A DNA stretch of 64,000 nucleotides from Octopus sinensis (taxonomy: Eukaryota). The translations under genes were made by a program, and so were the position numbers. Positions 6,781 to 14,358 of the stretch are shown here, in pieces (the stretch's first letter is position 1; every line of letters begins with the position of its first letter). The notes under the pieces are model-generated. The model was not told the origin of the DNA, did no database searches, and saw only the letters and a program-made list of their open reading frames with translations. The DNA is taken from positions 88,226,001 through 88,290,000 of the forward strand of contig NC_043000.1 in assembly GCF_006345805.1 (NCBI RefSeq). Reading direction: 5' to 3'.

Positions 6781-7114
6781 TACGGATTCCATGGACAGCG
6801 AGGCTCATCAATGGAGAAGTTCTTAAGCAGATCAGGTCGAAAATGTCGCTAGAAGCTAGGATCACCAAGCATAGATTGGCATATTTCGGTCATGTTATGC
6901 GGAGAAAATCCCTGGAGAAGGACATCATGCTCGGAATGGTCAGTGGCAAGAGAGGATGAGGCCGACCAAGAACCCGCTGGCTTGATACCATCAAGAGGGA
7001 TACTGGAATGGACATAGCCAATCTGAAAGAAGTAGTCCAGGATAGAACTGACTGAAGGACACTGATCCAACGAACAACCGAGAGTCGACTTCGACTGAGC
7101 GGATAGATAGATAG
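6781..7114 (+). mobile_element. 5'-truncated RTE-clade (BovB-like) LINE 3' end
   Basis: Translates RIPWTAR...RLAYFGHVMRRKSLEKDIMLGMVSGKRG*GRPRTRWLDTIK...DRTD*R; (GATA)n tail; 11 bp TSD aagtaaataat at 6770-6780 and 7115-7125. Confidence 0.9.
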
Positions 7115-7204
7115 AAGTAAATAATACTACAAGGAATCTACCCAGATATTTTACTGTTTCTCTAACTGGGCGATCTTCAGCCAACGGAATAATATGTACT
7201 TGTA

Positions 7205-7390
7205 ATAATTTTGAAGGAAGGTATAGTCGATTAAATCGACTACTATACTTGGCTGGTATTTTGTTTTCTAGATCACTGAAGGGTGAAAAACAGTCGACAT
7301 TGCCAGGATTTGAATTCAGGATGAACAGAGACAACTGAATACTGCAAGGCATTTTGTCCAAAATCTAACTGATTCCGTCAATCCACCACC
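7205..7390 (-). mobile_element. Decayed SINE (27620 family)
   Basis: agtcgattaaatcgac...ctggtatt...gtgaaaaacagtcgac...ggatttgaattcag matches the intact copy in the same orientation. Confidence 0.55.
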
Positions 7391-10330: not shown

Positions 10331-11160
10331 CAACTGCCACAGAAGTGTCAATACACAACTTTATTCTTATCTCCACGGATTCTCGTTGTCAGCACTCCAT
10401 ACACTCCTCCATTCCTTTATTCCTTAATACGTTTCTCTCTTAACCTCATCTTTCTTTTCATTTCGTTCTTTTTCCAATTTTCTCTAAACTTCTCCTTTAC
10501 TTGTCACCTCCCTTTCCCTGCCTGTCCTTCTAGTATTGTCTTTTCTTCTCCTTCTATATGTACATCCCCCTCTCTTTAAACATAACTTTCTAGCCTCTAC
10601 CAGCAATTTAGTTGCATGCACTTCAACTCTATCCAGATTTGTCCTCCTGTCAGGAAAATAACTCATCGATCCTCACCTATGTGCAACTGCCACTACGCTA
10701 TTAGAATTTAATTATTAAATGCTGCTTTTCAAAAATGTTATATCCCTGTCCAAAAGGAATGGGGTGAAATGTTCTTCAGCAGCTATATTTACTCTTTTCT
10801 GAGAGCATAAGTCTGTTGAGCCTATGTGAAAATTGAAGTAAGTAATAATTTCTTACTACGAAAGTCATATGTTGTGCATGTACATATATACATGTGTGTA
10901 TACGTATATACATACATGCATATATACATTTAATCATACATGTATATACACATACATGTGTGAGTTTAGATGTAAATGCGTATATATATAGAATGGTTGT
11001 ATACTGTCAATCTAACATGAACGTGACAGTAGGCGGGGTACACCCCCACTGTTTAGCCCTAGGAAGCATCGACATCTCCAGATGACTTTGACACATTTTT
11101 CCTGTGTCCTTATATACATTTACGAAGGGGAGACAAATACCCCCAGCCGCCAGGGCTGCA

Positions 11161-11207
11161 TCTAGAGACACGTGTGTTTCAGGAACATTGTCCTTCGTCG
11201 GTCTAGA
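11161..11207 (-). ncRNA. Minimal type I hammerhead ribozyme (CCGACGA core variant)
   Basis: Minus strand: tctaga CCGACGA agga-caatgt-tcct GAAA cacacgtg TC tctaga; stems I, II and III all pair; GUC triplet. Confidence 0.7.
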
Positions 11208-11234
11208 CTAGCAGACGCCGGTCAGCTGTTGATA

Positions 11235-12842
11235 AAATCTTTATTATGGGCACGAAGGCCCGAATTAAGAGGGAACATTACAACAGACATGGGGTACATA
11301 TAACAACAAAAAAATCGAAAAATATGAAATGAAAATGAATTATTTATAATGAATTAAATGAATGGCTTACGAGCCCCCCAAAACTCGCAGTTTCATTTAA
11401 AATACAGTTCTGCTATACTGGTCGTTCATCTGTCATATATTCTATTAAGCTCTCCTGATCCACAATAGTTGGTAAAGTGTCATAACGTACATATAACCAT
11501 TCACATATACTATAATCATATCTCATTTTCTGCACTGTCTCTTTCTCCACGATTACCACCTTCCACTGGTCATCATATATTTCTGGGTTCAACTTTACTC
11601 TAACCAAACCTTTCCTACCTGCCAACATCTTTTCCGTATTTTTGTCCTTGTCGTATAACATTACCACTTTATGTTTCTTTCCCTTGGGTCTTCCTCCTCT
11701 CTTACAAACTTTCAACTGCTCTTCCACTCTTCTGTCCCATTCTTCCTCTGCTGTTAGTTTTACCGGTTCACTCACTTCCGCTTTTATATCCTCTTCGCAT
11801 GTTCGATTTTCCCTCTCGTCAGTAATCTTGTTTTTCGCTTTTTTCTTCTTTTTTTTTTGTTCTTTAGGTGGTGATTCCACACGCATTCTTTTTCTATTTT
11901 CTTTCTCCAACTCTTCACCACTTTCCACATTATCCGTAGTGACGATTTCCTCCTCCACACACGCATCTTGCAACTCATTCGTTAAAGTCTCCAGGGCTAT
12001 CGTCTTCTCCAGCACTTCTCCCAGCGGACACACATCCTTCATGTGGCCTCTTATTTTGCATTTGTAACACACTGGGGGTCTCCACTCCACCACGACTCTA
12101 AGACGTGTCTCGTCGGGGAACACCAACTCCTCCGGGATGTTATAGAGGTCTGGCATAGTAATGTGGACCAATGCCTGCACCGCATAACTCCACCACTTTA
12201 CTTCTGTTGACCTTTCCACCTTCAACACCTCAACGCTTTCCTTGCAGTTGAAAACCACTGCCGCTAGAATCCTCTCCATGTTAAGCTCCGGCGAAATCCT
12301 ACCGATTCGTATTCTTACTGCCCTCTTTCCGCAGTAACTTGGTAGTAACGTCCATCTTTCAGATTTCAAAATTTTCGTGGCATTCCTTCTCGCTTCATCT
12401 TCATTTTTAAAATGGACGACCACTGTAGCGTATTTTCTACCTCTATTATAGGAGGTAGCTTCGCCTTCAATTTCCTGCAGACATTTTTCTATTTCCTCCG
12501 TCTCTGCCACTTCTATTTTCTTTGAAGCTACGCTCCACGTTCTGTACGTAATCATACGTTTCTCCGCTTCTTTTGCTTCTTCTTCAGGCGGTGTGACTCT
12601 CACACAGTCACCTTCCTTCTTCAAGCTGTCGAAATATTTTTCCAAAGTCTCTTTCTCGACTACCACTTCTTCCAGCTGTAGTTCACTCGCAGCCAGGCTC
12701 CTGCCTGCCGCTCCCGCATACGTCTGGGCTTGCATTTTCGAAAATTCACCACGCCGCAACGGCTTCCACCAATGAACTCGAACTCACAACCTCGACACAA
12801 CAATAACGCAATCAAAAATATCCGACACCAAATTAAACAAAA
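11235..12842 (-). mobile_element. ORF1-only (HAL1-like) non-autonomous non-LTR retroelement, 1608 bp
   Basis: 17 bp TSD ccggtca(g/c)ctgttgata at 11218-11234 and 12843-12859; ~110 nt 5' UTR, one ORF, ~180 nt 3' UTR with AATAAA (11240-11245, minus); no RT or endonuclease. Confidence 0.85.
11413..12759 (-). CDS. LINE ORF1p/gag-like RNA-binding protein with CCHC zinc knuckle (L1/Tx1-like)
   Basis: Uninterrupted 448 aa ORF (first ATG at 12735, MQAQTYAGAAG); RRM-like segments; RPPVCYKCKIRGHMKDVCP = CX2CX4HX4C; acidic linker; KKKKKKAK basic patch. Confidence 0.85.
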   Translation of the reverse strand: MRRGEFSKMQAQTYAGAAGRSLAASELQLEEVVVEKETLEKYFDSLKKEGDCVRVTPPEEEAKEAEKRMITYRTWSVASKKIEVAETEEIEKCLQEIEGEATSYNRGRKYATVVVHFKNEDEARRNATKILKSERWTLLPSYCGKRAVRIRIGRISPELNMERILAAVVFNCKESVEVLKVERSTEVKWWSYAVQALVHITMPDLYNIPEELVFPDETRLRVVVEWRPPVCYKCKIRGHMKDVCPLGEVLEKTIALETLTNELQDACVEEEIVTTDNVESGEELEKENRKRMRVESPPKEQKKKKKKAKNKITDERENRTCEEDIKAEVSEPVKLTAEEEWDRRVEEQLKVCKRGGRPKGKKHKVVMLYDKDKNTEKMLAGRKGLVRVKLNPEIYDDQWKVVIVEKETVQKMRYDYSICEWLYVRYDTLPTIVDQESLIEYMTDERPV

Positions 12843-13161
12843 CCGGTCACCTGTTGATATCTGCCTCGACTCGTAATGTATATATCTAATTTCAGTGAAG
12901 TTTATTCACTGATTATCAAAATCAGAAATACTAAATTTCTAAATCTCTCGTAGAGACATGTACGGTGGTGGGGCGATAGAATGGTTGTATACTGTCAATC
13001 TAACATGAACGTGACAGTAGGTGGGGGGGGGTACATATCTCTACGAGAGATTTAGAAATTTGGTATTTCTGATTTTGATAATCAGTGAATAAACTTCACT
13101 GAAGTTAGATATATACATTACGAGTCGAGGCAGATATCAACAGTTGACCGGCGTCTGCTAG

Positions 13162-13209
13162 TCTAGACGGACGAAGAACAATGATCCTGAAAACACGCGT
13201 GTCTCTAGA
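13162..13209 (+). ncRNA. Hammerhead ribozyme, inverted copy of 11161-11207 (degenerate core)
   Basis: tctaga CGGACGA agaacaatgatcct GAAA acacgcgtg TC tctaga. Confidence 0.55.
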
Positions 13210-13438
13210 TGCAGCCCTAGCGGCTAGGGGTATCTGTCTCCCCTTCGTAAATGTATATAAGGACATTGGAAGAATGTGTCAAAGCCATCAGGAGGCGTCG
13301 ATGCTTCCTAGGGCTAAACAGCGGGGGTGTACCCCCCCTATTATCACGTTCATGTTAGATTGACAGTAAGTATACAACCATTCTATCGCCCCACAACCGT
13401 ATATGTCTCTACGAGAGATTTAGAAATTTAGTATTTCT

Positions 13439-13523
<85 letters not shown>

Positions 13524-13602: not shown

Positions 13603-14358
13603 TTTGTGTATGAATATATCAGTCTATCTATATTGTTGTCCCTCTTTCGCTCACTCTATAGAAATATGTGTGTGTGTATACATGTGTGCGTGCGTGGGTG
13701 CGTACATGTGTGTGTGTGTTATACACAGCAATATATATATATATATATATATACATGGAGGTGCAATGGCCCAGTGGTTAGGGCAGCGGACTCGCGGTCG
13801 TAGGATCGCAGTTTCAATTCCCAGACCGGTCGTCGTGAGTGTTTATTGAGCGAAAACACCTAAGGCACCACTAGGATCCAGCGATCCCCGCTGTACTCTT
13901 TCGCTGCAACTTTCTCTCACCAGCGGAGTGGCGTCATTTGAAGGCTAAAGCAATGCGAAGTGGATTGTAACCAGCGATGTATAGCACATCTGATACCCTG
14001 GTCGGTCACGTGATAATAGTGAATATACACACACACACACATATATGTATATATATATGTGGGAATACATGTATACGTACATATATTTGTGTATATATAA
14101 AAATATATACATGCATGTGTATATGTATGTATGTGTACGTGTATATATTTAAAAATGCACGTGTGTGTATGTTTACCTATCTATCTATCTATCTATTTAG
14201 GTTTATATGTAATATATATATGTGTGAATATAATTCTACATTTGTGTATGAATATATCAGTCTATCTATATCGCTCACTCTATAGAAATATGTGTGTGTG
14301 TATACGTGTGTGCGTGCGTGAGTGCGTACATGTGTGTGTGTGTTATACACAGCAATAT
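13603..14358. repeat. ~120-130 bp direct repeat flanking a SINE
   Basis: tttgtgtatgaatatatcagtctatctatat...cgctcactctatagaaatatg...ttatacacagcaatat at 13603-13735 and 14241-14358. Confidence 0.75.
13757..14013 (+). mobile_element. tRNA-derived SINE (GGAGGCGCAATGGCCCAGTGG head; octopus OR-type by inference)
   Basis: A box TGGCCCAGTGG, B box-like AGTTTCAATTCC, tail ...ctggtcggtcacgtgat; homologous to 44528. Confidence 0.85.

Follow-up and report, generated by a model that had tools for sequence, protein, structure and literature searches.

The ORF1-only retroelement described here is real and targeted: it is a HAL1-like partner of a target-specific LINE of the L1/Tx1 group. It lies in a 64,000 nt stretch of the Octopus sinensis genome (the window). 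The common insertion site and the similar tails of the element and of full-length LINEs make it very probable that the family is both targeted and mobilised in trans. As a whole, the explanation that we slightly favour is an ORF1-only family copied in trans into a fixed site of its host repeats, by a LINE helper that would be guided to snRNA-type transcription starts.

The element and its insertion site

The element is a HAL1-like non-LTR retroelement of the L1/Tx1 group, delimited by sequence and family comparison to 11235..12842 on the minus strand (1608 bp). In brief, a 5' UTR of 107 nt with a T-rich run at its start (12736..12842) is followed by ORF1 (11413..12735; ATG at 12735, stop at 11413), the sole open frame of the element, encoding 440 aa, and by a 3' UTR of 178 nt (11235..11412), all on the minus strand. 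A 4-bp stem-loop can be read from the sequence of the 3' UTR at 11261-11248, and AATAAA is found at 11245-11240. Positions 11235-12842 contain neither a poly(A) tail nor a reverse transcriptase (RT). The first-pass annotation, made from the sequence of the window alone, described the element in the same terms (1608 bp, a single zinc-knuckle frame, AATAAA, no poly(A) and no RT), and all of these hold.

A 17-nt duplication flanks the element, with the 5' copy at 12843..12859 and the 3' copy, assigned from the sequence, at 11218..11234 (minus strand). A single base distinguishes the two copies, and a third base occupies that position at the empty site of the inverted host copy (13135-13151). The 5' copy likely corresponds to the first bases of the host transcript, given the start inferred below. 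Both the duplication with its one mismatch and the empty site had been noted before and are present as reported. In the adjacent inverted copy the site is continuous and carries no element, which favours insertion of the element after the host repeat had arrived at this locus.

Elsewhere in the window, a 171-aa open frame at 6849-7364 (minus strand) resembles by eye a fragment of a LINE RT. A repeat at 13755-14020 has, also by eye, a tRNA-like head; ARAGORN predicted no tRNA in the window.

The ORF1 protein

ORF1 is predicted to consist of two RRMs and a CCHC zinc knuckle. The structure model places two RRM-like domains at about aa 50-220 and a charged C-terminus of low confidence; the knuckle, CX2CX4HX4C, is a sequence motif at aa 223-236. 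The mean pLDDT of the model is 61.6, with values of about 80-90 across aa 21-220. It resembles tandem RRM proteins (Foldseek, best E 7.5e-5), and the best score in the VIA structure comparison was a middling Z of 8.4 (rmsd 2.5, 75 residues aligned). The Pfam zf-CCHC match to the knuckle is weak and below the cut-off (E 0.022).

A protein search with ORF1 found no match, a PDB sequence search gave spurious matches only, and a profile search led to one protein, whose source record calls it an uncharacterised protein of Octopus. A representative protein library held 1610 unnamed matches. By BLASTP, ORF1 matches the ORF1s found upstream of ORF2s with AP endonuclease (APE), RT and zinc finger at E 1e-22 to 1e-43.

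As judged from substitution ratios between copies, ORF1 is under purifying selection. The median dN/dS (Nei-Gojobori) is 0.09 for the core, aa 20-242, over 138 non-independent pairs with dS above 0.1, and 0.16 for the whole of ORF1.

An old ORF1-only family

The source genome gave at least 70 matches with the element DNA as query (40 of 307 candidates scored) and at least 99 with the ORF1 protein (96 of 28,994 candidates scored). Exact counts were 121 for a 3' UTR motif and at least 108 for the element tail, and 0 for the controls. In all 65 near-full copies, ORF1 lies at most 1.9 kb from the tail, and the frame is intact in 20 of them. The structure is accordingly not unique to the locus in the window, which had been raised as a possible objection to the family. 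The features that define HAL1-like elements are all found: an ORF1 without ORF2, homology of this ORF1 to those of the L1 group, and a family amplified with target-site duplications and a selected ORF.

In a tree that carries a long-branch warning, the window-type ORF1s form a clade separate from the ORF1s of eight full-length LINEs sampled in the source genome. Because its ORF1 is homologous to, but stands in a clade apart from, those of full-length LINEs, the family is by this comparison an old ORF1-only lineage and not a broken LINE. We also considered the element as a fresh deletion of its helper; this is ruled out, as the likeness at the DNA level is only about 12 nt at the tail and the ORF1s fall in separate clades.

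We found 94 3' ends in the fetched loci, 66 with the C-tail of the window element and 28 with a second tail. The last approximately 30 nt of the second tail match those of another LINE family. Eighteen second-tail copies form one nested clade with a support of 100/100 in a tree of 65 rows, and 26 of the 28 second-tail ends lie outside the host repeats described below. Tail and target thus change together.

The same short tandem repeat is found at the end of L092-type LINEs and of some ORF1-only copies with the second tail (L130, L139, L140 and L059), which suggests that this repeat is another preferred target. Three further stretches (L133:3-1229, L160:6737-7939 and L132:58-1470) have about 37% amino acid identity to ORF1 across the N-terminal half; a short 3' UTR, with a tail of its own, comes after the ORF in L133 and L160. 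From their sequences, these likely represent a second ORF1-only family. At one host A site (L138:5495-7903), chimeric short elements are arranged in tandem, in which the 5' approximately 1 kb of a full-length LINE is fused to the 3' end of the ORF1-only family.

Two copies are rich in sense-strand A-to-G changes relative to their closest relatives, G000:C2:29616253 (L122:508-1707, minus strand) in 209 of 222 substitutions and G000:C19:17285812 (L038) in 136 of 192. In both, G is depleted 5' of the altered base. These copies are likely retrotransposed ADAR-hyperedited RNAs, which also points to an RNA intermediate.

The host repeat and its hammerhead

The element is inserted in host repeat A. 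On sequence comparison, the part downstream of the insertion point covers 10988..11234 and the upstream part, together with the end of the previous monomer, 12860..13026 (both minus strand). An inverted, unoccupied copy lies at 13031..13440 on the plus strand. The monomer is approximately 365 nt long, and a direct partial tandem and the inverted copy lie between (TA)n tracts. This layout, with an inverted copy and (TA)n flanks, is by analogy the arrangement described for Penelope-like insertions. The source genome contains at least 201 exact empty host A sites. Like the non-LTR retrozymes, the host is a short multicopy non-coding repeat, tandem or dispersed. It has three relatives, hosts B, C and D; the four are homologous yet diverged, with a column identity of 51%.

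Host repeat A carries a putative type I hammerhead at 11161..11207 (minus strand), with the core CCGACGA (U4C). Stem I starts at 11207, 28 nt past the element, stem III is short and near-palindromic, and the cut is predicted between 11167 and 11166. The empty inverted copy has a variant at 13162-13209 with the core CGGACGA. Rfam gave no hammerhead match at the gathering score anywhere in the window, nor in 20 loci, and the single-sequence fold of the region was no better than shuffles (z 0.2); the basis of the call is instead covariation between host families. Stem I reads TCTAGG/CCTAGA, GCTACA/TGTAGC or CGTGCG/CGTGCG depending on the host, with 5-6 of 6 pairs formed in the copies that pass the parse, which lists only those with at least 5/6 pairs in stem I and at least 3/4 in stem II. 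The core pair C3-G8 alternates with U3-A8 among host families. We conclude from this covariation that a hammerhead with core and stems I-III is present and that cleavage can be predicted. This bears out the co-oriented hammerhead, 28 nt downstream, proposed by the first-pass annotation.

Penelope-like ORF fragments are found within a few kb of occupied host copies (L145:1056-1853 and L156:1512-2531); their GIY-YIG and RT matches are weak and below the cut-off. Two DNA-type sequencing runs have a summed depth roughly 100-fold higher on the host than on the element, a figure to be taken as a hint only. Contigs of two runs guessed to be RNA overlap parts of the element, and strand, start and end are unreadable from them. 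Contigs of a further DNA-type run, X19 (labelled as a different organism, from the same study as X18), bridge both junctions between element and host, at window 11170-11360 and 12743-12889 with about 97% and 90% identity. The arrangement may therefore be shared with a related species.

Targeting of three host families

The 66 C-tail ends adjoin host A in 34 cases, host C in 20 and host B in 7, and the remaining 5 adjoin other sequence. Counted together, 61 of 66 ends, or 48 of 53 loci, lie in hosts, always at the same position approximately 28 nt before the type I hammerhead. These figures refer to best hits and hand-picked stretches, not to a random sample, and two of the 94 labels were corrected by hand. 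Around the insertion point, hosts A, B and C are only 33-42% alike. In the element tree (65 rows) the host labels are interleaved, with at least 8 forced changes for A, at least 4 for C and at least 4 for B; the changes were counted on starred branches, and recombination between copies could add to them. A site-specific non-autonomous family and a chance insertion had both been put forward for the element. The former is supported by the 48 of 53 C-tail loci at one host position, the flanks being unrelated in only 5 of 53, and the latter is rejected on the fixed position across three diverged host families.

Among four off-target truncated copies, two have duplications, of 15 and 19 nt; these end at the tail and contain no hammerhead sequence. 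They are true target-primed insertions made without a ribozyme.

All eight on-target 5'-truncated copies examined, a selection from the 3' ends counted above, lack a duplication, so that hitch-hiking accounts for some of the apparent targeting. At C10:85.66 Mb, an inverted duplicate comprises both element and host, and one fused junction of host C and element recurs at three loci. From these junctions, occupied repeats are also copied as units, probably by Penelope-like machinery. The earlier proposal that the element is carried in the RNA of the repeat is in this way supported, as a second route.

Full-length LINEs as likely helpers

A zf-RVT search and the reading of neighbouring stretches located full-length LINEs of approximately 5.4 kb, with ORF1 and an ORF2 (APE, RT and zf-RVT), that occupy the same site as the ORF1-only element. 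In brief, L126 has an intact ORF1 and a 1140-aa ORF2 with APE, RT and zinc finger, and is inserted in host C with the duplication on both sides. L126 and L124 share the layout common to other L1-group LINEs, in which ORF2 has an AP endonuclease, an RT and a C-terminal zinc motif. LINEs and ORF1-only copies are also found in tandem at one site, L143 after an ORF1-only copy in host B, and L141 and L142 before one.

The L143 family is at the host B/D site in 28 of 30 fetched loci (40 of 608 candidates scored): 23 are inserted directly into host B or D and 5 adjoin the duplication and another element, and the other two are at U2 and elsewhere. The L126 family is young, with at least 40 matches at 95-100%. 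Of its 64 exact tails, 33 have the host C motif behind them; the remaining 31 have no exact host C motif next to them, and one of these adjoins U1. A LINE 3' end 88% like L126 is found at a host A-type site (L046). The LINEs thereby have the preference for a multicopy target seen in the Tx1 clade, to which we take them likely to belong. The helper RT gave 2199 homologues, and among the 120 listed none is named Tx1.

We found no full-length LINE with the exact C-tail of the window element, and at C1:194.616 Mb (L238) the expected full-length LINE end in host A is absent. A search for a relative with ORF1 and ORF2 sharing the 3' UTR, suggested earlier, was borne out as to the target; the relative found resembles the element only in its final few bases and in how the 3' region is laid out. 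Since they occupy the same site, sometimes in tandem with the ORF1-only element, the full-length L1/Tx1-group LINEs are likely its helpers.

snRNA joins and a promoter-like box

Three joins were found at +1 of snRNA genes: an L143-type LINE at U2, an L126-like LINE (92%) at U1 and an ORF1-only 3' UTR at U2. Such joins are rare, with 2 junctions against 45 matches to the U2 5' end and 1 against 42 U1 matches. By eye, no tail position adjoins the starts of U4, U5 or U6 among the matches listed. The 5' junction of the U2-inserted LINE (L227) consists of the U2 upstream box, 11 nt of U2 and a 17-nt host D leader, followed by the element. The donor RNA of this insertion would thus have carried the first bases of its former host, as expected for a start at the host site.

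In the window, a box, ATCAGTGAA, is located at -54 from the insertion point (12892..12913, minus strand). It matches the U1/U2 upstream box and doubles as the 5' side of an 8-bp hairpin. The U1/U2 5' matches have ATCA(G/T)(T/C) at -56 to -60 in 25 of 36 cases. When six host representatives were scored with a matrix made from these boxes, the peak fell at positions -54 to -56 relative to the insertion point, and 2-29 of 2000 shuffles were equally good. A box of the snRNA-type (PSE) promoter at the U1/U2 spacing is accordingly present in hosts A-D, which are no independent tests of it because they are homologous, and is absent from host E. Two U6 upstream regions have no box.

Host E, a tandem repeat of approximately 520 nt, is the target of a sister LINE family, L112-L117 (e.g. 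L115 and L116), 83% identical to L143. In this repeat a canonical CTGATGA hammerhead follows the insertion point by approximately 75 nt and a TATA box precedes it by 30 nt, and no U1/U2-type box is present at the spacing seen in hosts A-D (410 of 2000 shuffles were as good).

We suggest that the insertion point is likely the start of an snRNA-type transcript, within about 3 nt. The target would then likely be an snRNA-type transcription start rather than the ribozyme, because the U1/U2 box lies at a matching spacing while the likeness among the targets in hosts A, B and C is just 33-42%. An snRNA promoter drives a hammerhead repeat of the newt, satellite 2 (cited in PMC2220036); the hosts resemble this repeat, with a promoter that is putative in octopus.

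Proposed mechanism and alternatives

Based on these observations, we consider a promoter-guided step a little more probable than site choice without one. The host repeat would be transcribed from a U1/U2-type promoter, starting at or no more than approximately 3 nt from the insertion point. An inserted element would be transcribed from the same promoter, so that its RNA begins with the first approximately 16 nt of the host, and its own ORF1 would coat this RNA in cis. The helper ORF2 would recognise the stem-loop/AATAAAGA tail, nick near +1 of another such promoter and reverse-transcribe the RNA. The host-derived leader may aid full-length 5' joins and rebuild the site, giving tandem arrays, and the inserted element could also be moved as cargo when Penelope-like machinery copies the repeat. 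More tentatively, we speculate about a layered parasitism, in which the snRNA transcription machinery tethers a LINE lineage, together with the ORF1-only element that hitch-hikes on it, to +1 of pol II snRNA-type promoters. They would live mainly in promoter-bearing ribozyme repeats, be transcribed there and be spread in addition by Penelope-like machinery. Such insertion would be factor-guided, tolerant of sequence and precise to the base.

The same targeted, trans-mobilised family could instead have its site set by DNA sequence, through the endonuclease and pairing of read-through RNA that co-evolve with each host, and the promoter match would be incidental or would only give access. We regard this as rather unlikely, though it accounts for several observations. 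Element tails run into host-specific bases, the off-target joins of the L180, C26 and C8 copies keep short host-like sequence, and host D is 50-54% like the U2 5' end and 54-58% like that of U1. The snRNA joins resemble the donors' read-through and could be explained by RNA-DNA pairing. In the hosts the box also forms one side, the 5' arm, of a hairpin that covaries, and it could serve Penelope-like copying as an RNA element. Targets of the Tx1 clade are, moreover, generally ascribed to the endonuclease (PMC4494074). However, close relatives switch among the targets in hosts A, B and C despite their low likeness, and a 10-bp match would by our estimate be expected thousands of times in 2.7 Gb, yet three events are at snRNA +1.

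It is very improbable that the structure or the cut of the hammerhead positions the insertion and supplies the 3' end of the element, although tail and stem I are nearly the same distance apart throughout hosts A-D (stem I starts about 27-34 nt after AATAAA). The U1/U2 targets have no ribozyme and the hammerhead of host E is approximately 75 nt away. The suggestion that the hammerhead processes the 3' end is not supported: off-target copies end at the AATAAAGA tail with no hammerhead sequence, and relatives are found at U1/U2 +1. The U4C core variant is reported to lower hammerhead activity (PMC3088659), and hammerheads with a short stem III to function poorly as monomers (PMC4209133). Equally hard to sustain, and largely refuted, is an origin without real targeting, in which Penelope-like copying of the repeat amplified one chance insertion, or a few, as cargo. 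The missing duplications of on-target truncated copies, the inverted duplicate of element plus host and the recurrent fused junction would fit such an origin. Against it, the element tree intermixes copies from three host families, distinct subfamilies are stacked with full-length LINEs at one site, and the young L126 family is at the same position.

Relation to known systems

HAL1 (half-L1) is a non-autonomous L1-group element that encodes ORF1p only (PMC5753468). The octopus element is likewise non-autonomous, of the L1 group and restricted to ORF1. Unlike HAL1, it is found in an invertebrate, its ORF1 is of the RRM-RRM-CCHC type, it has no poly(A) and is site-specific, and it represents an old lineage and not a recent deletion of its helper.

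The target-specific members of the Tx1 clade include Tx1L/Tx1D, Keno, Kibi, Koshi and Tx1-Mar with SINEU (PMC4494074). Like the octopus LINEs, they are APE-RT LINEs that insert into multicopy repeats, transposons or snRNA genes, occur in tandem and have a target in common with a non-autonomous partner (PMC4494074). In octopus, by contrast, the target is a hammerhead retrozyme-like repeat, the partner is protein-coding, and one family uses dissimilar targets at a constant distance from a promoter-like box. In Utopia the 3' flank begins at U2 nt 39, a site also used by Keno (PMC4640811). The octopus U2 joins are at +1 and not at the Keno site (U2 nt 38/39; PMC4640811).

Dictyostelium TRE5-A.2 is also ORF1-only, and its targeting has been linked to TFIIIB (PMC3159450). 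TRE5-A.1 and TRE5-A.2 resemble the octopus elements in that an autonomous and an ORF1-only element form a pair, the insertion is positioned relative to a transcription complex and ORF1 is favoured in cis (PMC3159450). TRE5 inserts approximately 50 bp upstream of pol III tRNA genes, whereas in octopus pol II snRNA-type promoters would be used, at +1, with a putative tethering.

The hosts resemble the non-LTR retrozymes, 170-400-nt repeats with type I hammerheads (PMC7229834), hammerhead repeats with a short palindromic helix III (PMC4209133) and, in their inverted 5'-truncated copy, the pLTRs of Penelope-like elements (10.1101/2021.04.23.441226). They differ from known retrozymes in their variant cores (U4C; U3-A8). 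In the literature consulted we found no LINE that targets hammerhead repeats or snRNA +1; these families may already be listed in Repbase or Dfam. Hammerhead, ribozyme and ORF1 are not mentioned in the main text of an octopus repeat annotation of 2026, whose supplements may include the families as well.

Hammerhead retrozyme-like repeats and snRNA +1 represent a target class for sequence-specific LINEs that is new in the literature consulted, and the octopus adds an ORF1-only partner whose target changes along with its 3' tail. In yeast, Ty3 is targeted by a promoter complex. If a promoter complex guides the octopus elements too, they would be an animal counterpart of Ty3 and of Dictyostelium TRE5, and would offer a natural system in which DNA is inserted precisely where transcription begins. 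The finding also provides a directly testable candidate for the promoter of these retrozymes.
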